Source of the DNA: Nonlabens ponticola
GTDB taxonomy: Bacteria > Bacteroidota > Bacteroidia > Flavobacteriales > Flavobacteriaceae
DNA length: 32,000 nt
Assembly (NCBI RefSeq): GCF_003966335.1
Contig: NZ_CP034549.1
Span: 2,310,001 to 2,342,000, forward strand
Direction of reading: 5' to 3'
Below are positions 8,869-26,669 of the stretch, one piece after another (position 1 is the stretch's first letter; each line of letters opens with the position of its first letter). Position numbers and translations under genes: made by a program. The notes under the pieces were generated by a model. It saw only the letters and a list, made by a program, of their open reading frames with translations, was not told the origin of the DNA and did not search any database.

Positions 8869-8882
8869 GCTTTCGCGAAAGC
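8869..8882. repeat. copy 1 of 14-bp perfect palindrome GCTTTCGCGAAAGC (intergenic)
   Basis: Exact match read directly. The flank GTAATC on the right gives + polarity. Confidence 0.95.
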
Positions 8883-12449: not shown

Positions 12450-13453
12450 GCAATTTTAAAGCATGGATCAGCGCGGCACGACCACGCACACTGCCGTTGA
12501 GCATTAGCGGTATCATACTGGGTAGTTGTTATGCTTATGGTTACAACGCTTTCGCGAAAGCGGTATTATTACTAGGTTCTCCGCAAACAAACGACGTCAT
12601 AAATCAACCCATTTTATTTGTAAAATTCAACTGGTGGATACCTGTACTAGCTTTGATTACCACTCTAGGTTTTCAGGTGCTGTCCAATTTTGCAAACGAT
12701 TATGGCGATGGCGTTAAAGGTACCGACAATGATGACCGTATTGGACCAATGCGTGCCATTCAAAGCGGCTTGATAAGCGCAGTACAAATGAAAAGAGCTA
12801 TGATTATCACGGCTTGCCTTACAGCTGTGAGCGCTATTAGTTTGATTTATGTGAGTTTAGGGTTGGAACAATTGATCACATCGCTGTTCTTTCTTGTGCT
12901 AGGCGTTGCCGCAATATGGGCCGCCATAAAATATACGGTAGGCGATAATGCTTATGGCTATCGTGGATTGGGTGATGTATTTGTTTTTATCTTTTTTGGC
13001 CCGGTAAGCGTGATCGGTGTTTATTACTTAATCGCGAGCCAACTTGAATGGTTGTTGTTGTTGCCATCATTGACCATTGGTTTGTTGAGTGTTGCCGTGC
13101 TCAACCTGAACAACATGCGTGATATCGAGAGCGATCGCAAGGCAGGAAAGAATACCATTCCCGTAAAAATAGGTATCACAAATGCCAAAAGGCTTCACTA
13201 CTCATTCATAGCCATCGCGCTGATTTCAATTATTGCATACATTTTTATAATAATTAAAACTTTAGGCAATGTGGTTGGTGATACAGAATGGCTATGGCTT
13301 CCTATCCTGGTTTTACCCATGTTGCTTGTTCACATCATCACAGTTTATCGCAATAAAGTTCCAGCACTACTCGACCCAGAACTTAAAAAAGTTGCACTCT
13401 CCACCTTCTTTATCGCGATCCTAACAATTATCGCAACAGCGAGAGTTTACTAG
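12446..13453 (+). CDS. menA: 1,4-dihydroxy-2-naphthoate polyprenyltransferase
   Basis: 335 aa polytopic membrane protein. Has the UbiA-family Asp-rich motifs NDYGDGVKGTD and NNMRDIESDRKAGKNT. Its ATG overlaps the holA stop (ATGA). Confidence 0.9.
   Translation: MSNFKAWISAARPRTLPLSISGIILGSCYAYGYNAFAKAVLLLGSPQTNDVINQPILFVKFNWWIPVLALITTLGFQVLSNFANDYGDGVKGTDNDDRIGPMRAIQSGLISAVQMKRAMIITACLTAVSAISLIYVSLGLEQLITSLFFLVLGVAAIWAAIKYTVGDNAYGYRGLGDVFVFIFFGPVSVIGVYYLIASQLEWLLLLPSLTIGLLSVAVLNLNNMRDIESDRKAGKNTIPVKIGITNAKRLHYSFIAIALISIIAYIFIIIKTLGNVVGDTEWLWLPILVLPMLLVHIITVYRNKVPALLDPELKKVALSTFFIAILTIIATARVY
12548..12561. repeat. copy 2 of GCTTTCGCGAAAGC (inside menA, read as AFAKA)
   Basis: Exact match. Corresponds to codons 35-39 of menA. 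Right flank GGTATT. Confidence 0.95.
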
Positions 13454-13633
13454 CTTTTAAAGAATTAAGTAATTATCATATTCTCAGTATTATGCACGCA
13501 TAATGAATTATTATTGATATTAGGATAATATATTCATGATTTGTTAGGTTATCTGCATTTAAAATCATTATATTTAAATTCACTAAAATCATTCTTATTG
13601 CAACAAATTACTCTACAATAAACTTATCGTACT

Positions 13634-13837
13634 ATGGCTAGAGCAATGTTTGAATACACCCTAACGGTGCTGGAAAAAATGACTTTTGACACCAATTTAT
13701 TTTGCAAGGAATTGCAAAAAGCGATGGATCGTCTACTTCCATTTGAAATATCAGAACTACAGATATGGCTGCAAGGAATCGTTTTGCAACATCCACAATT
13801 AAATGTGTGTTTACCTGAGTATAAAATGACACAATAG
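13634..13837 (+). CDS. hypothetical small protein (67 aa)
   Basis: ORF only. Predicted soluble and helical. Lies in an AT-rich gap. No motif recognised. Confidence 0.3.
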   Translation: MARAMFEYTLTVLEKMTFDTNLFCKELQKAMDRLLPFEISELQIWLQGIVLQHPQLNVCLPEYKMTQ

Positions 13838-13881
13838 TAGTCACTAGTAGTGATTAAAACCTCACCTTCATTAACAGTAAT

Positions 13882-14079
13882 ATGAAGTTCATTACCATCA
13901 TCGGTTTCGTAATCATTATCACCATACTGATGATCATATTCACATACTTATATAAAAAACGCCATCCTGAAAAGAGATGGCGTTTGAGTATTATCAATAT
14001 TTATAATTGGCAGGCAATAACTCTAGGAGTTATGTGTGTTATCGCCGGTCTTATTTTGATATTTAAGATCTTAATTTAG
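13882..14079 (+). CDS. hypothetical small membrane protein (65 aa, two hydrophobic helices)
   Basis: ORF only. Two ~20-aa hydrophobic segments are separated by the basic loop KKRHPEKRWR. Confidence 0.35.
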   Translation: MKFITIIGFVIIITILMIIFTYLYKKRHPEKRWRLSIINIYNWQAITLGVMCVIAGLILIFKILI

Positions 14080-14087
14080 TTCAGTTA

Positions 14088-15026
14088 CTATTTCTTAGAG
14101 AGCGGACTTATTATTTCCACATTACTAAAAGTAATAGCACCTTTTATCACGCCTGCGATAACTTCTTGCAGCGCGTCAATAATCTGCATCTTTAGACCAG
14201 ACTTGTGATAGATTAAACTTATCTCTCGTGCTGGTGATGGATCTTCAAAATGTCTGAGGTTTTTAGCTTTTGCCTCACTTAAATCTAGCGTATTCAAGTA
14301 AGGCAACAACGTGGTGCCCAGACCTTCATCAGACAGTTTGATAAGCGTTTCAAAACTACCGCTTTCTAGCATAAATCGTTCCTCGTCAGCATCTCTTGAG
14401 CTGCGACATAGGTTAAGCACACTATCCTTAAAGCAATGACCATCTTCTAATAACAACAGTTCATCTGTATTGAGGTCATCTACCTTGATCTTGCCTTTAC
14501 CATTCAATGAGTTTTTAGGATCATAACTCACAAAAGGCTCAAAGTACAATACGCGTTCCTTGATAAAATCATTTTCTAGCGGTGTCGCTGCAATCGCGGC
14601 ATCAATACTGCCTTCCATCAGGCCGTCTACAATATTTTCTGTAGTTAGTTCCTCGATGCGCAGACGCACTTTAGGATAACGGTTGATAAAATTGGTCAAG
14701 AACATAGGCAACAGTGTTGGCATCACCGTAGGTATCACGCCTATTTTAAAATCACCTCCAATAAATCCTTTCTCCTGATCTACTATATCTTGAATACGGT
14801 CACTCTCATTAACTATATTATGCGCTTGCTGTACGATCTTGCGACCAGTTTCTGTCAACTCAATCGGCTTTTTAGTACGATCAAATATTTGCACATCCAG
14901 CTCGTCTTCTAGCTTCTGGATTTGCATGCTTAATGTAGGCTGGGTAACAAAAACCTTGTTAGCCGCCTTAGTAAAATTTTGATATTGTGCTACCGCAAGA
15001 ACATATTTAAGTTGCGTGATGGTCAT
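14088..15026 (-). CDS. oxyR: LysR-family hydrogen peroxide-responsive regulator OxyR
   Basis: N-terminal LysR HTH (LKYVLAVAQYQNFTKAANKVFVTQPTLSMQIQKLE). Has the OxyR redox Cys pair in LLLEDGHCFKDSVLNLC. Divergent from tpx. I prefer the ATG at 15024-15026 over the TTG at 15042-15044 used in the ORF track. Confidence 0.8.
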   Translation of the reverse strand: MTITQLKYVLAVAQYQNFTKAANKVFVTQPTLSMQIQKLEDELDVQIFDRTKKPIELTETGRKIVQQAHNIVNESDRIQDIVDQEKGFIGGDFKIGVIPTVMPTLLPMFLTNFINRYPKVRLRIEELTTENIVDGLMEGSIDAAIAATPLENDFIKERVLYFEPFVSYDPKNSLNGKGKIKVDDLNTDELLLLEDGHCFKDSVLNLCRSSRDADEERFMLESGSFETLIKLSDEGLGTTLLPYLNTLDLSEAKAKNLRHFEDPSPAREISLIYHKSGLKMQIIDALQEVIAGVIKGAITFSNVEIISPLSKK

Positions 15027-15181
15027 GATAGATATTTTCTTCAAAATTAATTAATAGTATCGATTGGACTTATACCATTGCAAAGTCTTTATGATATATT
15101 CTTCCTTTTTAATTTAACATTATTCCAACTTAAAGGCAGGTGCTGTATGATACTTTAGTAAACAACCACAAAACAAACGAC

Positions 15182-15682
15182 ATGGCAACTATTACATTAG
15201 GAGGCAACGAGATACATACTAGCGGCGATTTACCCAAAGTGGGCAATAAAGCACCTGACTTTGAATTGACCACCGCAGATTTGAAATCAAAAACACTCGA
15301 GGACTTTAAAGGCAAACGAGTGATCATGAATATCTTTCCTAGTATTGACACAGATACTTGTGCGACATCTGTACGCAATTTCAACAAGCGCGCTACCGAG
15401 CTTGATAATACCACGGTACTTTGTATTTCTCGAGACACACCTTTTGCACAAAAGAGATTTGCCAATGACGAGGAAATCAATAACATAGTGAATTTGAGTG
15501 ACGTGCGCGATGGTTCTTTTGGTAAAACTTATGGACTAGACATGGTAGATGGCGCGATGAAAGGTTTTCACTCACGAGCAGTCGTGGTTTTGGATACAGA
15601 TGGTACCGTCATATATAATGAGCAAGTTCCAGAAATAGCTGATGAGCCTAATTATCTAGAAGCGCTCAAATCGCTGTTGTAG
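15182..15682 (+). CDS. tpx: thiol peroxidase (atypical 2-Cys peroxiredoxin)
   Basis: Peroxidatic Cys lies in FPSIDTDTCA and the resolving Cys in VLCISRDTPFAQKRF. The start MATITLGGNEIHTSG at 15182 matches the usual Tpx N-terminus. The track ORF begins further upstream, at 15140. Confidence 0.9.
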   Translation: MATITLGGNEIHTSGDLPKVGNKAPDFELTTADLKSKTLEDFKGKRVIMNIFPSIDTDTCATSVRNFNKRATELDNTTVLCISRDTPFAQKRFANDEEINNIVNLSDVRDGSFGKTYGLDMVDGAMKGFHSRAVVVLDTDGTVIYNEQVPEIADEPNYLEALKSLL

Positions 15683-15683
15683 A

Positions 15684-16061
15684 TTGAGTTTCCTTAAATT
15701 TTCATCTGGCAGAGTACGAGCGGTAGGCTATGCCTTCAAAGGAATGGTTGCACTAATCAGGCGAGAACCTAGTGTAAAGGTTCAGGTCTTTTTAACCGTT
15801 CTCGTCATCGCTGCTGGATTTTATTTTGAAATTACCGCAACTCAATGGATGTTTCAACTGTTGGCAGCTGGCTTGGTATTATCTGCCGAAGGTTTAAACA
15901 GCGCAGTAGAAGCTATTGCAGATTTCATCCATCCAGATTATCATTTGAAGATTGGACATATTAAAGACATCGCCGCTGGCGCTGTCTTTTTTGCTGCCAT
16001 TTTTTCAACCATCATCGGCTTGATCATCTATGTCCCGTACATCCTAGCCCTATTTGATTAG
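15684..16061 (+). CDS. dgkA: diacylglycerol/undecaprenol kinase family protein
   Basis: 125 aa with three TM helices. Has the SAEGLNSAVEAIADFIHP motif. TTG start lies 1 nt after the tpx stop. Confidence 0.75.
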   Translation: MSFLKFSSGRVRAVGYAFKGMVALIRREPSVKVQVFLTVLVIAAGFYFEITATQWMFQLLAAGLVLSAEGLNSAVEAIADFIHPDYHLKIGHIKDIAAGAVFFAAIFSTIIGLIIYVPYILALFD

Positions 16062-16110
16062 TCTGTCGATAACCTATTACCAATGCAATAGATTCTCGGT
16101 GCAATATTCC

Positions 16111-16118
16111 TATTTTTG
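16111..16118 (+). promoter_or_regulatory. candidate Bacteroidota -7 box (TATTTTTG) for ftsK
   Basis: Matches TAnnTTTG 17 nt upstream of the ATG at 16136. Confidence 0.3.
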
Positions 16119-16135
16119 TCCGTTCACTTACCAGT

Positions 16136-18547
16136 ATGGCTCGTAAAAAATCAACCAAATCCAAAACGGTCAAAAAGAAGTCGCCTATCAAGGCGGTTAC
16201 CTCTTTTAAATTGACTCGATTGCAAGAGGTCATTGCTGGTAGCTTCCTAATTATATTAGGGCTTATTCTTGCACTTAGTTTTACTTCTTTTTTACTCACA
16301 TGGCGCGAGGATCAAAGCATTTTAGGTCGTTTAGGTGAACGAGAACTAGTTGCTGGCAATTGGCTCAGCAAGTTGGGTGCATGGTTGGGCGATGTCTTTG
16401 TTTATGACGGTTTTGGTATTGCTGCCTACTCCATTGCAATCTTGACGATTATTACCGGACTCTACTTATTTGCAGCAAAGAGTGAGGTGATCTCGCTTTC
16501 GCGAAAGCGGATATCCAAATTATGGATTTGGGGACTGTTACTCATGGTTTGGGTAAGTGTCTTTCTAGGTTTCTTTCATGAGCGCAACGCATTATTGGGC
16601 GGCAAGGTAGGATACGAACTCAATGACTTTTTACAGGACTACATAGGACTGATAGGCGCAATACTGGTGATGGCGCTGACTGCCATCATATATATGGTGA
16701 TGCGATTAAAGTTGACACCAGAAAAAATAAGCAACTATTTCAAATCAAAAGCTGCCGACATAAAAAGTGATTTTAAAGATGATGAGGCACCAGCTACAGA
16801 GATTACTGAGCTGGAAGAAGACTGGAAGTCAAACACCGTAGAAGGTAAGGAAACACCACTTACAGTAGAGCCCGCAGATGAACCAACTGTGGTAGAGACA
16901 CCAAAGCCACCTCAACCAATCATAAAATCCATCCCAGCAACAGATGATGATCTAGGCATGGAAATCCAGCAAATTGCTGATGAAGAAGAAGTGATAGACA
17001 GTAAATCAAGCAAGCTAGTAGAGGATTTTGGTGAATTTGATCCAACGTTGGAACTGAGTAATTTTCAATTTCCGCCTATTGATTTATTGAAGGATTACAC
17101 TCAAGGTCGCACGCTCACGATTAATGAGGAAGAACTACAGGCAAATAAGGACCGCATTGTCGAGACGCTTAAAAATTATAAAATTGGAATTGCCAAGATC
17201 ACAGCAACCATTGGCCCAACCGTGACATTGTACGAGATTGTTCCTGAAGCTGGTGTACGTATTTCCAAAATCAAAAATCTTGAAGACGATATTGCCTTAT
17301 CGCTGGCCGCGCTAGGAATCAGGATCATCGCGCCTATTCCAGGTAAAGGAACCATAGGTATCGAGGTGCCTAACCAGAATCCATCGATCGTGTCCATGCG
17401 ATCTGTCATTGCTTCGCCTAAATTTCAAAAAGCGGAAATGGCACTGCCTATCGCTTTTGGTAAAACTATAAGTAATGAGACGTTTGTCGTCGATCTAGCC
17501 AAAATGCCTCACCTACTCATGGCTGGTGCTACCGGACAAGGTAAATCGGTAGGTTTGAACGCCGTGCTCACCTCACTACTCTATTCAAAACATCCCGCTG
17601 AAGTCAAGTTTGTACTCGTAGATCCCAAAAAAGTAGAGCTTACCTTATTCAACAAAATTGAACGTCATTATCTAGCCAAGTTACCTGACAGCGAGGACGC
17701 GATTATCACAGATAATTCCAAAGTGATCAACACGCTCAACAGCTTGTGTATCGAGATGGACCAACGATACGATATTCTCAAGGAAGCGATGTGTCGCAAT
17801 ATTAAGGAGTATAATGCCAAGTTTAAGGCACGCAAACTCAATCCAGCAAACGGCCATAAATTCCTACCATATATCGTGCTGGTTGTTGATGAATTTGCAG
17901 ACCTCATCATGACTGCTGGTAAAGAGGTAGAAACACCTATCGCGCGACTGGCGCAGCTGGCTCGTGCCATAGGTATTCATTTGATCATCGCCACGCAGCG
18001 ACCATCTGTTAATGTGATTACGGGTATGATTAAGGCAAACTTTCCTGCGCGTGTGTCCTTCAGAGTGCAACAAAAGGTGGATTCTCGCACCATACTTGAC
18101 AGTGGTGGCGCAGACCAATTGATAGGACGTGGTGACATGCTTTACACGGCTGGTAATGAGATTATCAGGATACAATGTGCATTTGTGGACACGCCCGAGG
18201 TTGAAAAGATTACAGACTTTATTGGCTCTCAAAAAGCTTATCCAGATGCACACCTTTTACCAGAGTACGTGGGTGAAGAAGGTGGCACAGCAATTGATAA
18301 TATTATAGAGGAGCGCGATGCAAAATTCCGTGAGGCGGCAGATATCATCGTGATTGCACAGCAAGGAAGTGCCTCGTTGTTGCAACGCAAGCTCAAGTTA
18401 GGTTACAATCGTGCTGGTAGAATTATCGACCAGTTAGAGGCCGCAGGAATTGTAGGCGGTTTTGAAGGCAGTAAGGCACGACAGGTGCTTATTCCAGATT
18501 TGGCCTCGCTAGAAGTATTTTTAAATGAAGAAAAGAACAGACCATAA
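16136..18547 (+). CDS. ftsK: DNA translocase FtsK
   Basis: 803 aa. Has an N-terminal membrane domain and an acidic/Pro-rich linker. Motor motifs are Walker A GATGQGKS, Walker B VLVVDEFADL and ATQRPS. The C-terminal gamma winged helix is present (LLQRKLKLGYNRAGRIIDQLE). Confidence 0.95.
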   Translation: MARKKSTKSKTVKKKSPIKAVTSFKLTRLQEVIAGSFLIILGLILALSFTSFLLTWREDQSILGRLGERELVAGNWLSKLGAWLGDVFVYDGFGIAAYSIAILTIITGLYLFAAKSEVISLSRKRISKLWIWGLLLMVWVSVFLGFFHERNALLGGKVGYELNDFLQDYIGLIGAILVMALTAIIYMVMRLKLTPEKISNYFKSKAADIKSDFKDDEAPATEITELEEDWKSNTVEGKETPLTVEPADEPTVVETPKPPQPIIKSIPATDDDLGMEIQQIADEEEVIDSKSSKLVEDFGEFDPTLELSNFQFPPIDLLKDYTQGRTLTINEEELQANKDRIVETLKNYKIGIAKITATIGPTVTLYEIVPEAGVRISKIKNLEDDIALSLAALGIRIIAPIPGKGTIGIEVPNQNPSIVSMRSVIASPKFQKAEMALPIAFGKTISNETFVVDLAKMPHLLMAGATGQGKSVGLNAVLTSLLYSKHPAEVKFVLVDPKKVELTLFNKIERHYLAKLPDSEDAIITDNSKVINTLNSLCIEMDQRYDILKEAMCRNIKEYNAKFKARKLNPANGHKFLPYIVLVVDEFADLIMTAGKEVETPIARLAQLARAIGIHLIIATQRPSVNVITGMIKANFPARVSFRVQQKVDSRTILDSGGADQLIGRGDMLYTAGNEIIRIQCAFVDTPEVEKITDFIGSQKAYPDAHLLPEYVGEEGGTAIDNIIEERDAKFREAADIIVIAQQGSASLLQRKLKLGYNRAGRIIDQLEAAGIVGGFEGSKARQVLIPDLASLEVFLNEEKNRP
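16495..16508. repeat. copy 3 of GCTTTCGCGAAAGC (inside ftsK, read as S-LSRK-R)
   Basis: Exact match. Spans codons 120-125 of ftsK (ISLSRKRIS). Right flank GGATAT. Confidence 0.95.
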
Positions 18548-18548
18548 A

Positions 18549-19199
18549 ATGATAATGACAAGAATCTACTTAATGATGTTTATGTGTTTTGCTTTCGCGA
18601 AAGCGGTATCAGCACAATCCTCGACTGCAGATAAATTGCTCAACGAGGTAGCAACCAAGTATAAGGCTTATGACAACGTAGTATTCACCTACAAAGGCAA
18701 TCTCAAAAATGAGCGAGCCAAATTTGATACCGACATCCAAGGCGAGGCAAAATTGAGCGGCAATATGTACAATGCCACCTATAACGGTACTACCTATATG
18801 TATGACGGTTCAAAATTATATACAATCAATCGCGAGGACGAGCAAGTAACCATCACAAAACAAGTAAGCGACGGTTCACAGATGATCAATCCATCGAATA
18901 TTATGACGTTTTATGAAAAGGGTTATACTAGAGAAATGGACATCATCCAGAATGTAAAAGGTCGCAAGATCCAGTACGTTAAACTGACGCCCATCAAATC
19001 TGATAGTGAATACAAGAATATTTTACTAGGTGTTGATGCAAATACCAAGCATATCTATAACGCTATTATTACAGAGCGCAGTGGTACCATCATCACGTTT
19101 ACTCTAAAGTCTTTCAAGCCTAATGAGACACTGCCTAAAAACAGTTTTATCTTTGATGCGTCTCAATATGATAATTGGGATATAGAAGAGATGGACTAG
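18549..19199 (+). CDS. lolA: LolA-like outer-membrane lipoprotein carrier protein
   Basis: Signal peptide followed by a ~190-aa beta-rich domain. The position immediately after ftsK is conserved in Bacteroidota. The start is ambiguous: ATG at 18549 lies just after the ftsK stop, while ATG at 18525 overlaps ftsK by 23 nt. Confidence 0.65.
   Translation: MIMTRIYLMMFMCFAFAKAVSAQSSTADKLLNEVATKYKAYDNVVFTYKGNLKNERAKFDTDIQGEAKLSGNMYNATYNGTTYMYDGSKLYTINREDEQVTITKQVSDGSQMINPSNIMTFYEKGYTREMDIIQNVKGRKIQYVKLTPIKSDSEYKNILLGVDANTKHIYNAIITERSGTIITFTLKSFKPNETLPKNSFIFDASQYDNWDIEEMD
18591..18604. repeat. copy 4 of GCTTTCGCGAAAGC (inside the lolA-like signal peptide, read as AFAKA)
   Basis: Exact match. Right flank GGTATC. 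Confidence 0.95.
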
Positions 19200-19200
19200 A

Positions 19201-20646
19201 TTGAAAATACTGGATAGATACATATTGACACAATTTATAAAGACGTTCTTGAGCGTCTTTATTGTGTTAATGTTTATTCTCATCCTGCAAGCCATATGGC
19301 TTTACATTAAGGATATTGCTGGTAAGGATATTGATACGGTTACCATCTTGAAGTTCATGATGTACACGATACCTGTCATCGTGCCGCTAGCGTTGCCTCT
19401 TAGTATATTATTAGCATCCATCATGGTTTTTGGTAACATGGCAGAAAACTATGAGTTTGCCGCTATGAAGTCTAATGGTATCTCACTACAACGTGCGATG
19501 CGATCCTTGACCATCGTCATTTTCTCATTGGGAATTACATCGTTTGTTTTTGCAAATACGGTAATTCCTTGGGGAAATCTCAAACAAAGAAACCTGCGTA
19601 GAAATATTGCTAAAGTCAAACCAGCAATGGCGATAAGTAAGGGCTCTTTTAATCAATTAGGTGATATCAACATCAAAGTAGCTGACAAGACTGGTGATGT
19701 AGGACAATACTTGACTGATGTTATTATACACAAGAAAAACCCGAAACGCTCGGGTAATTTTACTACGATAAAAAGTGCCACAGGTGAATTAAAAAGTTCA
19801 CTAAAGTCAGACATTATCCAGTTAGTGCTGGAAGATGGTAATTACTATGAGGATCTTTTTGTTACTGATAATAAAAAACGAGCCAGCTCGCCATTTTTAA
19901 GAACTGAGTTTGATACCTATACGCTTAATGTGGATGTCTCAGAACTTAATGATGTGGATATGGATAACGAGAGCGTTACCGATGATCATCAAATGCTTAA
20001 AATCAATGAGCTGAAAACACAAATCGATTCTTTCTCATCAGATTATAATGAGAACTTAAAGGTCTATCATTCAAACCAGCATGAAAAATGGTCGCCAGGT
20101 GGACTTGATGATACAATTTCAAAATACCTTGACAGCACAGAGACTACAGAGCCTATTTTTGAACGATTAACAGTCTATGACCAGCGACGCACCGTCGATG
20201 GAGCTTCCAATAAAGTAAAGCAACAGCAGGCAGCGTTGGTAACTAGAGGAAAACAGTTGCAACGGGAACGGGTACGACTCAATAAATATGAGATTGAGAT
20301 TCATAAAAAATATGTGCTGGGCGTTGCCTGTATCATATTGTTCTTTATTGGTGCACCGTTAGGAGCAATCATACGTAAAGGTGGTATGGGCTTACCACTA
20401 GTAGTTGCAACCATCTTCTTTCTTTCGTACCATTTTATAGGGATTTTTGCAGAAAAAGCCGCTGCCGAAGGTGCTTTTCCTGCCTGGATTGGCGCCTGGA
20501 TGAGTACGGCTATTATTTTCCCGATAGGAATCTTCCTTACCTATCGAGCCACTACTGATCAAGGCTTCTTTGACTTAGGTGGAGCCATCAATGGACTCAT
20601 GGATAGGTTTAAAAAGAAACCAAAATCCGTAGCGACCATTTCATAA
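19201..20646 (+). CDS. LptF/LptG-family (YjgP/YjgQ) permease
   Basis: 481 aa. N-terminus MKILDRYILTQFIKTF is typical of the family. Three N-terminal and three C-terminal TM helices flank a large loop. TTG start. Confidence 0.8.
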   Translation: MKILDRYILTQFIKTFLSVFIVLMFILILQAIWLYIKDIAGKDIDTVTILKFMMYTIPVIVPLALPLSILLASIMVFGNMAENYEFAAMKSNGISLQRAMRSLTIVIFSLGITSFVFANTVIPWGNLKQRNLRRNIAKVKPAMAISKGSFNQLGDINIKVADKTGDVGQYLTDVIIHKKNPKRSGNFTTIKSATGELKSSLKSDIIQLVLEDGNYYEDLFVTDNKKRASSPFLRTEFDTYTLNVDVSELNDVDMDNESVTDDHQMLKINELKTQIDSFSSDYNENLKVYHSNQHEKWSPGGLDDTISKYLDSTETTEPIFERLTVYDQRRTVDGASNKVKQQQAALVTRGKQLQRERVRLNKYEIEIHKKYVLGVACIILFFIGAPLGAIIRKGGMGLPLVVATIFFLSYHFIGIFAEKAAAEGAFPAWIGAWMSTAIIFPIGIFLTYRATTDQGFFDLGGAINGLMDRFKKKPKSVATIS

Positions 20647-20650
20647 TCCA

Positions 20651-20658
20651 TATCTTTG
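20651..20658 (+). promoter_or_regulatory. candidate Bacteroidota -7 box (TATCTTTG) for ribBA
   Basis: Matches TAnnTTTG 22 nt upstream of the ATG at 20681. Confidence 0.3.
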
Positions 20659-20680
20659 TAATTCAACGCAAAGTAAGGTA

Positions 20681-21826
20681 ATGACAACAGCTACAGCAGG
20701 TGCGGCCATCAAGTTAGACCGCATCGAAGACGCTATTCAAGATATTAAGGACGGTAAGGTAATCATCGTGGTAGATGATGAAAATCGTGAGAATGAAGGT
20801 GATTTTCTCGCCAGTGCACAAAGTGTAACGCCACAAATGATCAATTTTATGGCAACGCATGGTCGTGGATTGATCTGTTGTCCTATCACGCCACAGCGAG
20901 TCAAGGAACTGGACTTGAACATGATGGTCAATAACAATTCTGACCCTATGGAGACGGCGTTTACCGTATCTGTGGATTTGCGAGGTCATGGTGTCACTAC
21001 CGGTATTAGTGCCAGTGATAGAGCACTTACCATACAGGCAATGATAAATCCAGAGACGCAACCGCACGACCTGAGTAAACCTGGACACATATTCCCACTC
21101 AAGGCAAAAGATGGTGGCGTGCTAAGACGCACTGGCCATACTGAAGCTGCAATTGATTTTGCACGATTGGCAGGACACAAACCAGCTGGTGTTATTGTCG
21201 AGATCATGAATGAGGACGGCACCATGGCGAGATTGCCGCAATTAATTGAAGTTGCCAGAAAACATGATCTCAAACTGGTAAGCATCGAGGATCTCGTGGC
21301 CTATCGCATGAAACACGATAGTCTCATTGTAAAAAAAGAGGACTTTGAACTCAAGACGCGCTTTGGAACATATAGATTGAGAGCCTATCAACAAACTACT
21401 AACGATCAGATACATCTAGCTTTGACATTGGGCGACTGGAACAAAGAAGACACGGTTTTAACAAGAATGAATAGCACCCAAGTGAACAATGACCTCTTCT
21501 CTACCCTAACGAGTGAAGCTGATCGCAAGCTGGATGCCATGTTTGAGCGTTTAAATCAAGAAGGTAAAGGAGCCATCGTATTCATCAACCAGCAGTTTGA
21601 ACCAGAAAATATGCTGGGTAGATTAGAAGAATTAAAGGATCTGCAACTCAATGGCAAGGTAAAAGCGCCACGCCGCAATCTTGATAACAAGGACTATGGT
21701 ATTGGCGCACAAATTCTGCATGACTTGGATATTACCAAGCTCAAATTGATGACTAATAGCGAGCAAAGTAAACGCATAGGCATGATAGGCTATGACCTTG
21801 AAATAAAGGAGATTGTTAGTTATTGA
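20681..21826 (+). CDS. ribBA: 3,4-dihydroxy-2-butanone-4-phosphate synthase fused to a degenerate GTP cyclohydrolase II-like domain
   Basis: The RibB half is intact (DDENRENEGDF, HGRGLIC, TAFTVSVD, PGHIFPL, RRTGHTEA). The C-terminal half aligns to GCHII (DYGIGAQILHDL) but lacks the three zinc-binding cysteines. Confidence 0.85.
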   Translation: MTTATAGAAIKLDRIEDAIQDIKDGKVIIVVDDENRENEGDFLASAQSVTPQMINFMATHGRGLICCPITPQRVKELDLNMMVNNNSDPMETAFTVSVDLRGHGVTTGISASDRALTIQAMINPETQPHDLSKPGHIFPLKAKDGGVLRRTGHTEAAIDFARLAGHKPAGVIVEIMNEDGTMARLPQLIEVARKHDLKLVSIEDLVAYRMKHDSLIVKKEDFELKTRFGTYRLRAYQQTTNDQIHLALTLGDWNKEDTVLTRMNSTQVNNDLFSTLTSEADRKLDAMFERLNQEGKGAIVFINQQFEPENMLGRLEELKDLQLNGKVKAPRRNLDNKDYGIGAQILHDLDITKLKLMTNSEQSKRIGMIGYDLEIKEIVSY

Positions 21827-21842
21827 GGATTATAATTTTTTA

Positions 21843-21856
21843 GCTTTCGCGAAAGC
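21843..21856. repeat. copy 5 of GCTTTCGCGAAAGC (intergenic, ribBA-murQ spacer)
   Basis: Exact match. Right flank GTAACA. Confidence 0.95.
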
Positions 21857-21869
21857 GTAACATATATAA

Positions 21870-22685
21870 ATGTCACAGCACAACTACACAGAACAGGATT
21901 CCAGACATCATGATCTCGAATTGAAGTCTACTGGCGAGCTATTGGAAGCTATCAATGCCGAAGATCAAGTTGTCGCTAAAGCCATTCAAAAAATCCTTCC
22001 TGAGATTGAAAAGCTAGTAGACGCGATTGTGTTAAGAATGAGAGATGGCGGCAGATTGTTTTACATAGGTGCAGGCACGAGCGGTCGATTGGGAATACTA
22101 GATGCTAGTGAGTGCCCACCGACTTTTGGCGTTTCGCCAGACAAGGTCATTGGGATTATTGCAGGTGGTGATCAAGCGATTAGAAATGCCGTAGAAAATG
22201 CAGAAGATGATCAAACCCAAGCACTAAAAGATCTTGAAAAGCACGACATTAACACGAAGGATATTGTCATAGGCATTGCCGCGAGCGGTCGCACACCTTA
22301 TGTACTTGCAGGAATTAAGGCTTGTAAGGACCGCAAGATTCTTACTGGCGGTATAACCTGTAATCCTGAAAGTCCACTTGATCTCGCAGCCCAGCATTCT
22401 CTAGTTGCTGTCGTCGGCCCAGAATTTGTTACCGGTAGCAGCCGCATGAAAGCTGGAACAGCCCAAAAAATGATATTGAATATGATATCTACTAGCGTCA
22501 TGATAAAATTGGGACATGTTAAAGGTAATAAGATGGTGGATATGCAATTGAGCAATGACAAGCTGGTTGATCGCGGTGCTCGTATGATCATGCAAGCCAC
22601 AAAAATGGATTATGAAACCTCGCAGAAAATGCTCAAAAAATACGGTAGCGTGCGAGGAGTCCTGGATCATATAGATTTGTGCTAA
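21870..22685 (+). CDS. murQ: N-acetylmuramic acid 6-phosphate etherase
   Basis: 271 aa. SIS-domain signature LFYIGAGTSGRLGILDASECPPTFGV and TGSSRMKAGTAQK. Confidence 0.9.
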   Translation: MSQHNYTEQDSRHHDLELKSTGELLEAINAEDQVVAKAIQKILPEIEKLVDAIVLRMRDGGRLFYIGAGTSGRLGILDASECPPTFGVSPDKVIGIIAGGDQAIRNAVENAEDDQTQALKDLEKHDINTKDIVIGIAASGRTPYVLAGIKACKDRKILTGGITCNPESPLDLAAQHSLVAVVGPEFVTGSSRMKAGTAQKMILNMISTSVMIKLGHVKGNKMVDMQLSNDKLVDRGARMIMQATKMDYETSQKMLKKYGSVRGVLDHIDLC

Positions 22686-22918
22686 TGAAACAAGCATCAA
22701 CAGACCGTGAGATTTTGGGTAAAGGTGTCAAACGTTTATTACTGGCACTACCCTTTTTCATTTTGGGACCAACGCTGATCTTTATAGGAGCTGGAAGTGA
22801 GCATCCCATTATTTTTTTAATGCCTGGAATAGCCTTTGCAATTCTGGCTGTCTATTTTATGTTTTCGGGAATCAATACGATTCTAGACTCCATGTTCAAA
22901 ACCAAAAAAACTAGATAA
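22685..22918 (+). CDS. small membrane protein (two TM helices), function unknown
   Basis: 77 aa from the ATG at 22685, which overlaps the murQ stop (TAATG). The track ORF starts at GTG 22679. Confidence 0.5.
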   Translation: MKQASTDREILGKGVKRLLLALPFFILGPTLIFIGAGSEHPIIFLMPGIAFAILAVYFMFSGINTILDSMFKTKKTR

Positions 22919-23721
22919 TGAAATCGACCTACCTACTACTTTGCCTACTGTGTATCGTGACCGCATGTAAGACTGAAAATAAAAAGGAATCAGATAATTC
23001 CATTGAGACTACCCAGCAAGTCACAGCATCGATGAGCCCTGCTAGAGAATTAGTGAATAACATTGAGAGAGCTCACGGCGCAAATGCCTTTGCAGATCAA
23101 GAGATGGTTTCTTTTGATATCAACCTAGACTTTGGCGGTAAGGATCGACTGGACGGCACCATCTATATGACGACAGATTCAAAATATGCGCGTATTGAAA
23201 AAACTAATGGTGATGTGTTACTGTATGATGGCAATAAGGTGTGGTTATCGCCTAAAGATGCTAATCAGCAAGGCGCGAGATTTGATATATTTACCTGGAC
23301 TTACTTTTTTGCCTTGCCGTTCAAATTATCAGATGATGGTGCTCAAGTTGAAATGATGGAACCGCAGGATGAGATGAAACGCGTGCATCTAAGCTTTGAA
23401 AGTGGTACTGGCGATGCACCTGATGATTGGTACGATCTATACGTGGACGATCAAAACATATTACAATATGCAGGTTACATCGTCACCTATGGCGGCACAC
23501 CAGCTGAAAAAGCTGTGGAAAACGCACACGCCATAGGCTATCAGAGTTACAAAAATATTGAAGGTGTGCAGATAGCTCATGATTGGAAATTTTATAATTA
23601 TGATGATAATGTTGATACTTCAAACATCATTGGTGAAGCAAGTCTTAAGAATGTAGAATTCCGTCCAGTAGCACCTAGCTTGTTTAAGAAACCCGACAAC
23701 GCCGTAGAAATAAGTTTGTAA
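22918..23721 (+). CDS. hypothetical lipoprotein
   Basis: 267 aa. Lipobox LCIVTAC. Its start overlaps the upstream stop (TAATG). No catalytic motif recognised. Confidence 0.6.
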   Translation: MKSTYLLLCLLCIVTACKTENKKESDNSIETTQQVTASMSPARELVNNIERAHGANAFADQEMVSFDINLDFGGKDRLDGTIYMTTDSKYARIEKTNGDVLLYDGNKVWLSPKDANQQGARFDIFTWTYFFALPFKLSDDGAQVEMMEPQDEMKRVHLSFESGTGDAPDDWYDLYVDDQNILQYAGYIVTYGGTPAEKAVENAHAIGYQSYKNIEGVQIAHDWKFYNYDDNVDTSNIIGEASLKNVEFRPVAPSLFKKPDNAVEISL

Positions 23722-23799
23722 CTACTTGAGTGCATAAGTATCAATAGCATTGCTGGCAATAAGCAAATCAAAAATGAGTTTTTATAGCAACTCTATCAC

Positions 23800-25491
23800 A
23801 TGAATAAATTCTTAGCTTTTATAATATGTCTGATACTATCAGCTAATGTATTTGCACAGACTGAGCAGCCGCAAGACTCGTTGATCAAAATAAGCTCTGG
23901 TTTTACAACTATTAATGAGAAACTTTTCCCAGGTGCTGTAGTGTACTTGCGTAATGATGCAAAACAAGTCTATGCAAAACATCAAGGAATAGAGATGTAC
24001 TGCGATCGCGCTGTGTTCTATGAGAAGAGCAACTTTATAAAAGCCATTGGGAATGTACGTATGATTCAAGGTGACAGCATACGCATGAACTCTAAATATG
24101 CGGAGTACAACGGTAATTCAAAACTTGCCTATGCCGCTGGACAGGTAAATATGAAAAGTCCAGAATCAACTTTATCTACTGATACCCTATATTTTGATCG
24201 CGCGAGACAGCAAGCCTTTTATCGCAGCGGCGGCACAGTAAAAGATACAGCAAGCACATTAAAAAGTCGTGTAGGTCGATACTATTTGAACGACAAAAAG
24301 TATGTTTTTCTAGATGATGTAGTCGTAACTAATCCGGAATATGTCATCAATTCCAACCATCTCAATTTTTATAGTGAAACAGGTCACACTTATATGTATG
24401 GTCCATCAACTATCACAGGCGCTACGAGTAAGGTCTATTGTGAGCGAGGATTTTATGATACCAGAGCCGATGAGGGCTATTTTGTCAAGAACAGTAGCAT
24501 TGATTATAATGATAGAAATGTAAAAGGCGATAGCCTTTATTTCAATCGCAACAACAGTTTTGCCAGCGCTACCAATAATATTGAAATAACTGATACCATC
24601 AACAACAGTGTCATACGTGGCCACTATGCAGAGGTCTATAGGGCTAAAGATTCGGTTTTCATCACAAAAAGAGCCGTCGCCATATCAGTTCAAGAAGCTG
24701 ATAGTGTCTATATACACGCAGACACCTTACTAGTAACAGGTAAAGAAAATGATAGGCTTGTTAGAGCCTATCCAGACGCTCGATTTTATAAAAGTGACTT
24801 GAGCGGCAAGGCAGATAGCATCGCGTCCAAGCAAATTACTGGATTGACTAAGATGATTAGAAAACCAATTATGTGGAGCGGCCTAAGCCAAATAACAGGT
24901 GACAGCATACATCTGCAATCTAACACTGTGACAGAGCAGATTGACTCCTTGCGAGTATTCTATAATGCCTTTATTGTCGATCAGGATTCTAGCGGTGGCT
25001 TTAATCAAATAAAGGGTAAGGAACTTATCGGTTTGTTTGAAAACAATGAGATGACCGTAGTCAATATCGACAAGAATGTTGAGAATTTGATCTATGTACG
25101 CAACGATACAGATGAATTAATAGGTATCAATAAAGGCACCAGTGGTAGAATGCAGATAGAGTTTGAAGAAAGCGAAATGGTCGTCATCACTAACTTTGAT
25201 CAACCGCGAGACATCACTTATCCATTAGAGGAAATCGCAGAAAATGCCCGAACGTTACGCGGTCTTGATTGGCGTGGCGATGAGATGCTCAGGAGCAAGG
25301 AAGATCTTTTTAAAGGCAAGCCTTTACCGCAACTAATACAAATTCAAGGATTGCCATTGCCCGAGGTTGAAGAGGCGTTTTTCACCAAAGAAAATCAAGA
25401 GCAGCTCAACAAGAACTCGTCGCTCTCAAAAGAAGATCTTGAGAACCGCGAGGAAGATGAGTTAGAAAACATTCAGGATCCAGATAATTGA
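23800..25491 (+). CDS. OstA-like (LptA/OstA N-terminal-type beta-jellyroll repeats) periplasmic protein
   Basis: 563 aa. Has a signal peptide and repetitive beta-rich sequence with a recurring D-S/T-L-Y/I-hydrophobic pattern. The C-terminal tail is acidic. Confidence 0.5.
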   Translation: MNKFLAFIICLILSANVFAQTEQPQDSLIKISSGFTTINEKLFPGAVVYLRNDAKQVYAKHQGIEMYCDRAVFYEKSNFIKAIGNVRMIQGDSIRMNSKYAEYNGNSKLAYAAGQVNMKSPESTLSTDTLYFDRARQQAFYRSGGTVKDTASTLKSRVGRYYLNDKKYVFLDDVVVTNPEYVINSNHLNFYSETGHTYMYGPSTITGATSKVYCERGFYDTRADEGYFVKNSSIDYNDRNVKGDSLYFNRNNSFASATNNIEITDTINNSVIRGHYAEVYRAKDSVFITKRAVAISVQEADSVYIHADTLLVTGKENDRLVRAYPDARFYKSDLSGKADSIASKQITGLTKMIRKPIMWSGLSQITGDSIHLQSNTVTEQIDSLRVFYNAFIVDQDSSGGFNQIKGKELIGLFENNEMTVVNIDKNVENLIYVRNDTDELIGINKGTSGRMQIEFEESEMVVITNFDQPRDITYPLEEIAENARTLRGLDWRGDEMLRSKEDLFKGKPLPQLIQIQGLPLPEVEEAFFTKENQEQLNKNSSLSKEDLENREEDELENIQDPDN

Positions 25492-26669
25492 AGGAAGATT
25501 TCTTTAAATATCAAGCACCTACTACTCCATTTGCCAGCGGTCTAGAAATAAGTCATGCTAGCGGCAGCAAGATTTATGACAAGCACGGCAAGGAATACAT
25601 AGACATGGTAGCTGGTGTTAGTGCCTTACCACTAGGTCATAGCCATCATGCAGTCGTCAAAGCTATACAACAGCAAGCAGAGAAGTATCTTCATGTAATG
25701 GTTTATGGCGAGTTTGCGCAAGAACCAGCCGTACGTTTGTGCAAGATGCTTAGCAATAGTATGCCCGATCCATTAGAAATGACCTATCTGGTCAACAGTG
25801 GTACTGAGGCGATTGAAGCTTCCTTAAAACTCGCTCGCAGGATTACAGGTAGATCTCAAATCGTGGCCATGCACAATGCATATCATGGCAACACGATGGG
25901 ATCTTTAAGCTTGATGGATTATGAGGAACGCAAGGCGCCGTTCAGACCTTTGATTCCTAATATTAAGCACATAAATTATAATTGCCTGGCACATATTAAT
26001 CAAATTACCACAAGTACAGCAGCGGTAATTGTAGAGGCAATTCAAGGTGGTGCAGGATTTATAAAGGGTGACAAACGCTGGTTCCAGCAGCTCGCAGCCC
26101 GTTGTAAAGAGGTGGGCGCCATGCTCATTCTTGACGAGATACAAACAGGTGTTGGACGCACAGGTACTTTCTGGTATTTTGAACAAATGGACATTGTTCC
26201 TGATATGGTCGTTAGCGGTAAAGGACTAGCTGGTGGCTTACCCATCGGCGCCTTAACGGCAAGCACACAGCATATGGAGCATTTTAAGGTCGCACCCATG
26301 TTAGGTCATATCACAACTTTTGGTGGTAATCCAGTGATCGCGGCTGCAGCCTGTGCAACCGTGCAGGAAATTATTTCACGTGATTTGATGAATGCTGTTA
26401 TGGATAAAGAATTACGCTTTCGCGAAAGCTTACAATCCAAACACATCAAGGAAATACGAGGAACTGGTCTCATGCTAGCCATCATATTGCACGACGACCG
26501 ATTCACTTCTCAAATAGTTGACGAGTGTAGAGAAAGAGGTGCCATATTCTTCCTGCTGCTATTTGAAAAACGAGCTATAAGAATCACTCCAGCTTATACA
26601 GTAGGTGATGAAGATTCTACTAAAGCAATCAATATTTTGCTAGAAGTGATTCACAAATTTTACGACTAA
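25488..26669 (+). CDS. class-III PLP-dependent aminotransferase (acetylornithine/GABA aminotransferase-like)
   Basis: 393 aa. Motifs NSGTEAIEASLKLAR, ILDEIQTGVGRTG, and the PLP lysine in VVSGKGLAGGLP. The TTG start overlaps the upstream stop. Confidence 0.85.
   Translation: MKEDFFKYQAPTTPFASGLEISHASGSKIYDKHGKEYIDMVAGVSALPLGHSHHAVVKAIQQQAEKYLHVMVYGEFAQEPAVRLCKMLSNSMPDPLEMTYLVNSGTEAIEASLKLARRITGRSQIVAMHNAYHGNTMGSLSLMDYEERKAPFRPLIPNIKHINYNCLAHINQITTSTAAVIVEAIQGGAGFIKGDKRWFQQLAARCKEVGAMLILDEIQTGVGRTGTFWYFEQMDIVPDMVVSGKGLAGGLPIGALTASTQHMEHFKVAPMLGHITTFGGNPVIAAAACATVQEIISRDLMNAVMDKELRFRESLQSKHIKEIRGTGLMLAIILHDDRFTSQIVDECRERGAIFFLLLFEKRAIRITPAYTVGDEDSTKAINILLEVIHKFYD
26416..26429. repeat. copy 6 of GCTTTCGCGAAAGC (inside the aminotransferase gene, read as R-FRES)
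   Basis: Exact match. The conserved flank (GTAATT) lies on the opposite strand, giving minus polarity. Confidence 0.95.

Follow-up and report, generated by a model that had tools for sequence, protein, structure and literature searches.

The question raised by this locus is why a single 14-base palindrome, GCTTTCGCGAAAGC, recurs so often in the window, the whole 32,000-nucleotide stretch of Nonlabens ponticola DNA that was analysed. Six exact copies are present, compared with none in 100 dinucleotide-preserving shuffles (Table 1). Four lie inside genes and two between genes, and the coding copies cover all three phases (AFAKA twice, LSRK and FRES); these counts and phases, already given in the initial annotation, were confirmed by exact counting and against the ORF table and Pfam. 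The only other window site within two mismatches, GTTTTCGCGCAAGC, may be a decayed copy, with about 0.07 such sites expected per shuffled window.

The initial annotation further proposed that the palindrome can accumulate because it is harmless to reading frames. The premise is correct: the sequence is its own reverse complement, so that AFAKA, LSRK(R) and (R)FRES are its sole products, and TAA, TAG and TGA are absent in every register. However, 8576 of the 16384 possible 14-bp palindromes (52%, or 40% when weighted for 40% G+C) are stop-free in all registers. Because half of all such palindromes share it, the property is trivial and explains nothing specific.

Table 1. Palindrome copies and related features in the window, with exact copies at orthologous positions (L numbers denote compared genomes, followed where available by the start of the copy).
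Feature	Positions	Strand	Context	Exact orthologous copies
GTTTTCGCGCAAGC, two-mismatch relative	2767..2780		5' end of isochorismate-synthase-like ORF (1741-2778, -)	
Exact copy	8869..8882		Intergenic, between convergent VTT-domain gene (8184-8798, +) and OmpA-family gene (9006-9878, -)	L121 560, L124 538 (same intergenic region; flanks 38-39% identical ungapped)
Extended element, example	12518..12591		Core plus ~30 nt per side	
Exact copy	12548..12561	+	Phase 0, AFAKA, codons 35-39 of UbiA/MenA-type prenyltransferase (12446-13453)	L121 4245, L124 4207
Exact copy	16495..16508	+	Residues L121-S-R-K-R125 of FtsK (16136-18547), loop between TM helices, 4TM region	L122 7922, L123 7927, L124 7906, L125 7914
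Exact copy	18591..18604	+	Phase 0, AFAKA, signal-peptide end of LolA-like protein (18525/18555-19199)	L121, L122, L123, L124; Dokdonia L113 3059, L043 1303
Exact copy	21843..21856		Intergenic, 16 nt past ribBA stop (20681-21826), 13 nt ahead of SIS/MurQ-like start (21870)	L121 13266, L123 13318, L124 13297, L091 6957 (same intergenic region; flanks 24-35% identical ungapped)
Exact copy	26416..26429	+	R310-F-R-E-S314 of class-III aminotransferase (25488-26669), inside conserved helix	L121, L122, L123, L124, L125, L091 (6 of 6 other covering genomes)

Comparison with related genomes showed that single sites are held exact at fixed chromosomal positions across long divergence. In five other Nonlabens-group genomes, and at some positions in Dokdonia, the orthologous core is identical at 14 of 14 bases with flanks 24-77% identical, and the state of a position is all-or-none. 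For example, N. dokdonensis (L123) carries unrelated sequence at the position equivalent to 12548 (5 mismatches and a 3-bp length difference); the 21843 copy is absent in L122 and L125, and the LolA-like copy is missing both in BBFL7 (L125) and in the outgroup Hyunsoonleella (L126), where the gene is shorter by 6 nt in this region. The FtsK copy of L121 (7917) differs by one synonymous mismatch, CGA to CGG. Because it is letter-perfect at the same positions across species, the palindrome is, as judged from these alignments, a selected DNA signal rather than something that coding sequence carries along harmlessly.

The coding copies had been described as sitting in permissive places. This holds for LolA (signal peptide), for FtsK (TM loop, where the Nonlabens group has a lineage-specific 6-aa insertion directly upstream of the copy, relative to Dokdonia and Hyunsoonleella) and for MenA (a loop of variable length that follows the first hydrophobic segment), but not for the aminotransferase, where the copy is a substitution in a conserved helix, with no indel relative to solved acetylornithine/succinylornithine aminotransferases (aligned residues wFvErL and lFkElL). 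Orthologue alignment, suggested initially as a way to tell insertion from substitution, indicates that copies arise by substitution, with no consistent insertion.

Members of Nonlabens, Dokdonia and related marine Flavobacteriaceae carry one copy of the palindrome every 4-7 kb or so (a zero-truncated Poisson estimate gives about 1 per 6.6 kb), densities that are approximate since the sampled loci were mostly selected for carrying the motif; five syntenic loci picked independently of it contain 24 copies in 103 kb. By extrapolation there would be several hundred copies per genome. The sample holds 167 exact copies, compared with 0.001 expected per 745 kb from composition (iid), together with 14 one-off and 15 two-off sites, a ratio that is approximate for the same reason. 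Neither the half-sites alone nor TCGCGA alone are enriched. Among 120 genome-collection stretches, 85 belong to Dokdonia, Nonlabens or unnamed Flavobacteriaceae, and many of these contain 2-3 copies per 8 kb; each of the 29 stretches sampled outside Flavobacteriaceae contains just one copy. In a complete Dokdonia chromosome, palindrome blocks are found at 0.88, 1.38, 2.15 and 2.82 Mb. Copies are also present in (pro)phage structural genes. The cultured Nonlabens phage P12024S (35.7 kb) contains no copy, even at two mismatches, so at least some DNA can replicate in these hosts without the tag. A search of the accessible literature did not retrieve the literal 14-base sequence.

The sites avoid proximity to one another. 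Only 4 of 52 spacings are shorter than 1.5 kb, compared with 20.4 expected (P<5e-5), and the spacing is strongly over-dispersed, far more even than random, with a mode of 2-5 kb. With respect to genes, 34% of copies are intergenic compared with 10.6% of bases, a 3-fold enrichment, but not the overwhelmingly intergenic distribution envisaged as a refutation of the initial reading. Gene ends are not preferred over gene starts. All three phases are used, as first described, but unequally, with 49 non-redundant coding copies in phase 0 and 19 and 22 in the others.

The target of selection is the DNA sequence itself rather than the peptides. In the sample, 50 of the 51 occurrences of AFAKA are specified by the exact palindrome, a single DNA spelling, and therefore selection is on DNA rather than peptide; the palindrome likewise encodes 21 of 26 LSRK and 19 of 21 FRES peptides. 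It does so with codons that are rarely used: TCG for 8% of Ser, GCG for 15% of Ala and CGA for 17% of Arg. The coding copies are a by-product, placed where the protein tolerates AFAKA, LSRK or FRES, with intergenic sites and phase 0 preferred.

The conserved unit is larger than 14 bases. The motif extends to a 16-mer, C-GCTTTCGCGAAAGC-G, and each of the six window copies has a G/T-rich, C-poor left flank and an A/C-rich, G-poor right flank. Across 285 non-redundant flanks of the family, read outward, G occupies +1 in 81% and A occupies +3 in 68%, and G falls to 2-8% at +4 to +18 (16% at +8) compared with a background of 19%. The flanks are dyad-symmetric and G-depleted for ~20-30 nt; the depletion is ~1.6-2-fold at all three codon positions, amino-acid-changing ones included. 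This signature accompanies copies in genes, between genes and in (pro)phages; chance copies of the palindrome in unrelated genomes lack it. The arms show no arm-to-arm covariation, and the hairpin is weak (-4.3 kcal/mol, 5-6 bp, no better than shuffles), which together favor recognition of duplex DNA or sequence rather than structure.

The palindrome is thus very probably a selected DNA-level recognition site. The 14-mer would be the core of a dyad-symmetric recognition element consisting of C-GCTTTCGCGAAAGC-G and ~20-30 nt of flank per side, with the strand reading away from the core depleted in G. Because the two-fold symmetry is perfect and the exactness all-or-none, the site is probably bound by a highly specific, likely dimeric factor. 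HIP1, USS/DUS and Chi offer an analogy, by which the site would most likely serve as a 'self-DNA' tag in DNA uptake and/or homologous recombination. GT-rich single-stranded DNA is preferred by RecA; the GT-rich, C-poor sequence lying 5' to the palindrome on either strand may be DNA of this type, and its presence on both strands would explain flanks that are symmetric yet strand-asymmetric. To our knowledge, competence is undocumented in Nonlabens or Dokdonia, which counts against uptake. The known USS, DUS and Chi sequences are 5-12 nt, non-palindromic and less exact, differences that also speak against an uptake or Chi role. The full proposal, a selected, iterated, dyad-symmetric element with a self-tag function in uptake and/or recombination, is therefore put forward tentatively, and the uptake/recombination role taken by itself is held with the same reserve.

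A duplex, two-fold symmetric site would suit a structural chromosome protein equally well. The palindrome might be bound by a nucleoid-associated protein, or by a ParB/Noc-type clamp loaded at the 16-bp palindrome and spreading a few kb, in which case regular spacing would cover the chromosome evenly. The perfect 14-16-bp dyad and its high exactness resemble parS and Noc-binding sites, and the 2-5 kb spacing mode, the conserved in-gene positions and the lack of a site in the lytic phage P12024S are all compatible with such a function. Periodicity has been used to argue for a nucleoid role of HIP1 (PMC5861425). However, parS/Noc sites number from a handful to ~70 compared with the estimated several hundred here, their TTTC/GAAA half-sites are 4 bp rather than 2 bp apart, a pure duplex binder would not predict strand-asymmetric flanks, and host chromosome structure gives no obvious reason for copies in (pro)phage structural genes. 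This explanation is somewhat unlikely.

A neutral mutational or repair bias, such as VSP-like correction to a methylase site or template-switch perfection of quasi-palindromes, is improbable. The core does hold CGCG and TCGCGA, typical methylase targets, the all-or-none state of orthologous positions would follow, and patch synthesis starting at the site could have left the symmetric skew of the flanks. Known biases, however, cover 4-6 bp rather than 14-16, the unenriched TCGCGA and half-sites outside the full palindrome are not expected from them, and repulsion between sites cannot come from bias; the same-host-genus phage without a copy or near-copy and the G-depletion at amino-acid-changing positions also oppose it.

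A role in RNA or single-stranded DNA structure (hairpin terminator, attenuator, Rho-entry site or processing signal) is very unlikely. Palindromy, intergenic enrichment and the rut-like, G-poor, C-containing sequence downstream on either transcript would be consistent with it, but the hairpin and covariation results are unfavorable, no U-tract follows the palindrome, gene ends are not favored over starts, in-gene copies occur in both orientations at conserved positions, and there is no Rfam match.

The initial model of a functionless repeat that persists merely by being harmless in any phase and orientation is scarcely credible. Stop-freeness and the use of all three phases agree with it, but half of all 14-bp palindromes are stop-free; orthologous copies stay exact though synonymous and intergenic flanks have diverged, and no source of new copies is evident. 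Conservation and spacing already contradict it, and scarce variants, rare codons and peptide spelling also count against it. Equally hard to credit is in-frame insertion of a miniature mobile element of the type of Rickettsia palindromic elements, MITEs or REPs. In three cases, the gene with the site exceeds its site-lacking orthologues in length (FtsK, 18 nt; lolA, 6 nt; menA, 3 nt). Against this, the aminotransferase copy and the HSDR_N_2 copy of N. dokdonensis (compared with two orthologues) involve no indel, positions are stable across genera, target duplications are absent, copies share flank composition but not sequence, and a 14-16-bp unit is not a multiple of three, so that insertion is already largely refuted. 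Selection on AFAKA, LSRK and FRES can be dismissed: although AFAKA suits the AxA signal-peptidase site in LolA, the AFAKA count, a single spelling of 64 possible, refutes it, one DNA sequence underlies three unrelated peptides, one third of copies are intergenic, and outgroup orthologues lack the peptides, contrary to the conservation in distant taxa that the initial annotation had considered.

The 14-base palindrome of Nonlabens and Dokdonia can be set beside several known systems. Rickettsia palindromic elements, REP/BIME and MITEs are likewise repeated palindromic DNA, and RPEs are tolerated in frame in genes, but these elements are 35-150 bp, inserted and with shared flanks (REP and MITE intergenic), whereas the palindrome is 14-16 bp, at least two copies arose without length change, and flanks share composition only. 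The ParB-family parS and Noc-binding sites are also highly exact 14-16-bp perfect palindromes with TTTC...GAAA half-sites, often in genes; they differ in half-site spacing and in copy number, which is 10- to 100-fold higher here, and the palindrome gives no evidence of ori-proximal clustering.

Chi (RecBCD/AddAB) has a similar density (~1 per 5 kb in E. coli), exact recognition, a location mostly inside genes and a GT-rich character that matches the GT-rich stretch 5' of the site. Chi is, however, 5-8 nt, asymmetric, co-oriented with replication and read as single-stranded DNA, whereas the palindrome has no orientation, and we know of no Chi of 14-16 nt.

The comparison with uptake sequences made initially is apt. 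The USS/DUS of Haemophilus and Neisseria are likewise clade-specific, with a core and biased flank, coding and intergenic copies, a frame preference dictated by which peptides are tolerated, enrichment between genes, even spacing and homologous positions in related species. They differ in being 9-12 nt, non-palindromic, ~5-fold denser (~1 per kb) and accompanied by many one-off copies, and their uptake specificity was shown experimentally, whereas the role suggested here is a proposal from sequence. On uptake sequences, PMC7965970 cites Mell and Redfield 2014.

HIP1 (GCGATCGC) of cyanobacteria, a different phylum, is 8 bp rather than 14-16 bp and occurs once per 0.4-3 kb, the palindrome at ~1 per 5 kb being roughly 10-fold sparser. 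HIP1 also differs in that one-off variants are common, a dyad-symmetric G-depleted 20-30-nt flank is not reported, and no methyltransferase has been identified for the palindrome. In other respects, HIP1 is likewise an exact palindrome, vastly over-represented across the genome, within and between genes in all frames, conserved orthologously, spaced non-randomly and in some cases lengthened symmetrically by the adjoining bases (PMC4390886, PMC5861425); its sites are conserved and quasi-periodic (PMC5861425). HIP1 raises natural transformation and has been described as uptake- or Chi-like (bioRxiv 10.1101/2024.09.10.611283; 10.64898/2026.06.24.733823). The closest known counterparts are HIP1 and uptake or Chi-type self-recognition sequences. 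The palindrome is a clade-wide, highly iterated element that may mark DNA as 'self' in uptake or recombination.

The 14-bp palindrome GCTTTCGCGAAAGC occurs in six exact copies in the 32-kb window (see table), separated by five intervals of 2.1–4.6 kb, and is absent from 100 dinucleotide-preserving shuffles of the same sequence. No exact copies are found in 1–8868 and 26430–32000. The palindrome is stop-free in every register and, being its own reverse complement, can encode only three peptides, and the four coding copies lie in the phases assigned to them by the initial annotation, as confirmed against the ORF table and Pfam. These properties had been taken to make the palindrome harmless in any phase, and hence able to accumulate in genes. 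The properties themselves are real, yet they explain little. Stop-freeness is ordinary, because 52% of the 16384 possible 14-bp palindromes (40% when weighted for host base composition) are equally stop-free, and passive tolerance is a highly improbable explanation. The phenomenon behind the stop-freeness is considerably more interesting: a DNA-level, dyad-symmetric and highly exact site is maintained at fixed, mutually spaced positions genome-wide in one clade.

Table. Copies of the palindrome and related features in the window, in syntenic loci and in IMG/VR contigs
Sequence	Position	Feature	Context	Basis
Window	2767–2780	GTTTTCGCGCAAGC, two-mismatch relative	5' end of isochorismate-synthase-like ORF (1741–2778, minus)	
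Window	8869	Exact copy	Intergenic	
Window	10962–11408, minus (spot at ~11.2 kb)	Unrelated sequence of the same length	HSDR_N_2 gene	Alignment
Window	12548	Exact copy, AFAKA, codons 35–39	UbiA/MenA-type prenyltransferase	ORF table and Pfam
Window	16440–16495	6-aa TM-loop insertion	FtsK residues ~103–120	
Window	16495	Exact copy, L-S-R-K-R, codons 121–125	FtsK, within 4TM region	ORF table and Pfam
Window	18591	Exact copy, AFAKA	End of LolA-like signal peptide	ORF table and Pfam
Window	21843	Exact copy	Intergenic	
Window	26416	Exact copy, R-F-R-E-S, codons 310–314	Class-III aminotransferase	ORF table and Pfam
L121 (Nonlabens-group locus)	7917–7930	Decayed copy, CGA to CGG	ftsK orthologue	
L123 (N. 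dokdonensis locus)	1560	Exact copy	HSDR_N_2 gene	Alignment
L215 (IMG/VR contig)	191, 6705, 11185	Copies		
L148 (IMG/VR contig)	437, 6530	Copies		
L179 (IMG/VR contig)	4210, 7851, 10955	Copies		

The window has only one further site within two mismatches, at 2767, possibly a decayed copy. In its longest version, the lolA ORF begins at 18525, overlapping the ftsK stop; the identical public LolA protein (214 aa, MTRIY...) begins at 18555, and its signal peptide is of the conventional kind, with AFA-KA or VSA-Q at its end. The region at 28–32 kb has a lower G+C content (36–37%) and contains capsule or exopolysaccharide export genes (Poly_export in the window, the Wzz/GNVR tyrosine-kinase type in syntenic loci). 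Such export loci are often exchanged horizontally.

A search of bacteria and archaea, with each species represented by one genome, gave at least 120 stretches with the palindrome. Among the matches listed, at least 33 are from Dokdonia and at least 24 from Nonlabens, including strain BBFL7 (hand tally from titles), and at least 28 are from unnamed Flavobacteriaceae or 'uncultured bacterium' MAGs of similar G+C; other Flavobacteriaceae genera account for at least six, and unrelated phyla for at least 29, the latter always with a single copy per stretch, as by chance. The 8-kb Flavobacteriaceae blocks contain one to three copies, and a zero-truncated Poisson fit gives approximately one copy per 6.6 kb. 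Five syntenic Nonlabens-group loci, retrieved via LolA homologues and not via the motif, contain 24 copies in 103 kb, compared to none at the syntenic locus of Hyunsoonleella, the outgroup. The window LolA shares 60–81% identity with Nonlabens proteins, and the window is Nonlabens-like. Blocks with the palindrome lie at 0.88, 1.38, 2.15 and 2.82 Mb of a complete Dokdonia chromosome; therefore, the motif is spread around the genome. A density of about one per 4–7 kb implies hundreds of copies per genome, or several hundred in a genome of ~3 Mb.

Each of the six window copies recurs with 14/14 identical bases at its orthologous site in two or more other genomes. All six other genomes that cover the aminotransferase position share that copy, and the lolA copy extends to Dokdonia. 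The 96 nt surrounding the coding copies are 54–77% identical to the window in the Nonlabens-group loci and one further genome (L091), and the flanks of the Dokdonia lolA copies (L113 and L043) are 33–34% identical; the corresponding 96 nt around the intergenic copies are 24–39% identical and essentially unalignable. Across 745 kb from Flavobacteriaceae, exact copies number 167 (0.001 expected), alongside 14 variants with one mismatch, 15 with two and 18 with three, the last being near chance by a rough estimate; most of these loci were retrieved for containing the motif, so that densities and exact-to-variant ratios are approximate, with the retrieval bias limited by the five syntenic loci and the zero-truncated fit. 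Outside the full palindrome, the half-site CGAAAGC is not enriched in the 745 kb, and TCGCGA and CGCG are neither enriched nor avoided.

The peptide scan proposed in the initial annotation found 51 occurrences of AFAKA in the sample, compared to 0.19 expected from amino-acid composition. Fifty of these 51 are spelled by the exact palindrome, and the remaining one by a synonymous variant with one mismatch. The codons used include rare ones (TCG, 8% of Ser; GCG, 15% of Ala; CGA, 17% of Arg). At the ftsK site of L121, the sole decayed orthologous copy seen, a synonymous change keeps LSRK and breaks the palindrome. The spelling is the decisive test: selection on the peptides is excluded by this near-uniform encoding of AFAKA and by the retention of LSRK without the palindrome. 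The recurrent AFAKA, LSRK and FRES peptides of these proteomes are by-products of the DNA signal, which should be kept in mind in annotation.

Alignments bearing on whether the copies arose by insertion or by substitution, a question raised with the initial annotation, differ from gene to gene. The aminotransferase copy shows no indel relative to solved homologues and is located in a helix with a general F..E.L pattern. The perfect copy in the HSDR_N_2 gene of N. dokdonensis also shows no indel relative to the window and to another Nonlabens-group locus (L124), both of which have unrelated sequence of the same length between well-aligned flanks; in the window, 10 of the 14 bases mismatch the palindrome (hand count on the alignment). 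The insertion model is rejected for these two copies. The site-bearing ftsK, lolA and menA genes are longer than their site-lacking orthologues by 18, 6 and 3 nt respectively, with the differences located in variable loops or the signal peptide. A Nonlabens-group insertion in FtsK, relative to Dokdonia and Hyunsoonleella, is found just upstream of the palindrome (see table). The copies show neither a consistent insertion unit nor target duplications nor shared flanks, which makes a mobile-element origin unlikely. Orthologous positions are all-or-none, being either perfect or unrecognisable, with nothing intermediate observed at HSDR_N_2.

Intergenic copies represent 46 of 136 non-redundant copies (34%) in the sample, where genes are simple longest-ORF calls and intergenic bases make up 10.6%. 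Enrichment is of similar size (~2.5–3-fold) before gene starts and after gene stops; within genes, copies are mildly favoured towards the 5' end and depleted towards the 3' end. Since only this general enrichment on both sides is observed, a promoter or terminator role is rejected, and no transcription-unit logic is apparent from the placement of the copies. Use of all three phases holds for the 90 coding copies as a whole, with a clear departure from equal use (AFAKA 49, FRES 19, LSRK 22). Kyte-Doolittle hydropathy at the coding copies is −0.03 upstream and −0.39 downstream, a weak trend of ~2 SE, and a rule placing them at hydrophobic-to-polar boundaries is not retained. The copies are remarkably evenly spaced: only four of 52 within-block spacings are shorter than 1.5 kb, compared to 20.4 expected (P<5e-5, simulation), and the smallest is 856 bp.

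The sequence preference extends well beyond the core, as seen in a profile of 285 non-redundant flanks read outward from either core end. A G occupies position +1 in 81%, which makes the 16-mer CGCTTTCGCGAAAGCG the usual form of the element; T or G follows at +2, and A stands at +3 in 68%. Between +4 and +18, G is reduced to 2–8% (16% at +8) from a background of 19% and recovers only by approximately +30 to +35, with A and C raised meanwhile. On the top strand, the left flank is thus G/T-rich and C-poor, and the right flank A/C-rich and G-poor. This pattern is alike in coding, intergenic and (pro)phage copies, with G depleted at all three codon positions, and is absent from chance copies in unrelated genomes. 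The dyad-symmetric, G-depleted flanks constrain the mechanism, and could not be matched to any described system. Copies with a G/T-rich left and an A/C-rich right flank are also found in L071 and L110 (Aquimarina) and in L101 (Flavobacterium sp. LPB0248). The element may be distributed more widely than Nonlabens and Dokdonia, at lower density.

The two arms match no better within a copy than between copies, and folding energy is ordinary, which rules out a longer hairpin. The hairpin of the palindrome is weak (−4.3 kcal/mol) and no better than that of shuffles. An intrinsic terminator or structured RNA is likewise rejected, as there is no covariation, no Rfam match in the window and no T-run in the flanks. 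From the lack of arm pairing, the weak hairpin and the lack of an Rfam match, the element looks like a two-fold symmetric recognition sequence rather than a structure.

IMG/VR viral contigs with portal, prohead-protease-like and capsid genes contain two or three copies per 11–12 kb, a density like that of the hosts, with the C...G extension and G-poor flanks. Some copies are inside ORFs adjoining the portal and capsid genes, and one is inside an S49 peptidase gene. These contigs may represent prophages or temperate phages. No copies, even at two mismatches, are present in the cultured Nonlabens phage P12024S (35.7 kb), where at least five would be predicted at host density. Therefore, it is unlikely that all DNA replicated in these hosts receives a blanket mutational imprint.

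The palindrome is very probably a selected DNA recognition site. A highly specific, probably dimeric factor would recognise it, and the site could serve as a self-DNA tag in uptake and/or homologous recombination, as HIP1, USS/DUS and Chi suggest by analogy. This assignment to uptake or recombination is plausible but tentative. The symmetric flank pattern would, speculatively, follow from a single requirement, that on each strand the DNA 5' of the site be GT-rich and C-poor. Single-stranded DNA of this kind is preferred by RecA. A more specific proposal, which is on balance doubtful, is that the 16-bp palindrome and its GT-rich 5' flanks together form a self-recognition signal for uptake and/or RecA-dependent recombination, an orientation-free counterpart of USS or Chi with a dimeric reader. 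If true, it would explain the exactness, the even spacing, the positional conservation, the presence in temperate-phage-like DNA, and flanks that are symmetric about the site and strand-asymmetric. In the main alternative, a chromosome-organising protein would bind or load at the site; the even spacing and perfect dyad fit this reading equally well, and it is a serious candidate, although rather unlikely to be correct. Passive tolerance, repair bias, a mobile element, RNA structure and peptide selection are each very improbable.

There are few recognition motifs iterated genome-wide (HIP1, USS/DUS, Chi), and understanding of their biology is only partial. Neither such a motif nor a self-recognition signal for uptake or recombination has, to our knowledge, been reported from Bacteroidota. 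Dokdonia and Nonlabens are among the marine Flavobacteriaceae that serve as model photoheterotrophs, and an exact, evenly spaced and positionally conserved palindrome of 14–16 bp is a sharply defined and easily synthesised probe for a binding factor. It can be used for testing sequence-specific uptake or recombination in Bacteroidota, could make for better genetic tools, just as HIP1 aids transformation in cyanobacteria, and could act as a taxon marker in metagenomes. The searchable full-text literature contains no relevant match to the palindrome as a 14-, 12- or 10-mer, and nothing on palindromes in Dokdonia or Nonlabens.

Among known systems, RPE, MITE and REP elements do not fit the palindrome: there is no insertion signature, the flanks share composition only, and the arms do not pair beyond the consensus. 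The palindrome does not match the TGTTTCAC-GTGAAACA or TATTTCCC-GGGAAATA consensus of parS and Noc sites, from which it also differs in half-site register (a gap between TTTC and GAAA of 2 bp, compared to 4 bp) and in number (hundreds implied, compared to up to ~10 ori-proximal sites or tens per chromosome). It is not a Chi site, because a sequence that is its own reverse complement cannot be oriented; the GT-rich 5' flank on each strand is suggestive only. A clade-specific excess, an extended flank consensus and even spacing are shared with USS and DUS, but the palindrome is not a canonical USS or DUS. The sole indirect precedent for preferential uptake is a preference for own DNA in transformation in Riemerella columbina, also of the Flavobacteriaceae (PMC7965970). 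The likeness to HIP-type motifs includes a short exact palindrome in genome-wide excess by orders of magnitude (six in the window, none in shuffles), copies both within and between ORFs, and a core conserved beyond its flanks (14/14 compared to 24–77%). HIP1, which is both conserved and quasi-periodic (PMC5861425), varies together with genes for DNA uptake (10.64898/2026.06.24.733823) and raises natural transformation, an effect likened by the authors to those of uptake sequences and Chi (10.1101/2024.09.10.611283). The HIP literature consulted covers cyanobacteria alone, and the palindrome differs from HIP1 (GCGATCGC) in sequence, length and phylum; it is a HIP analogue, not HIP1 itself.
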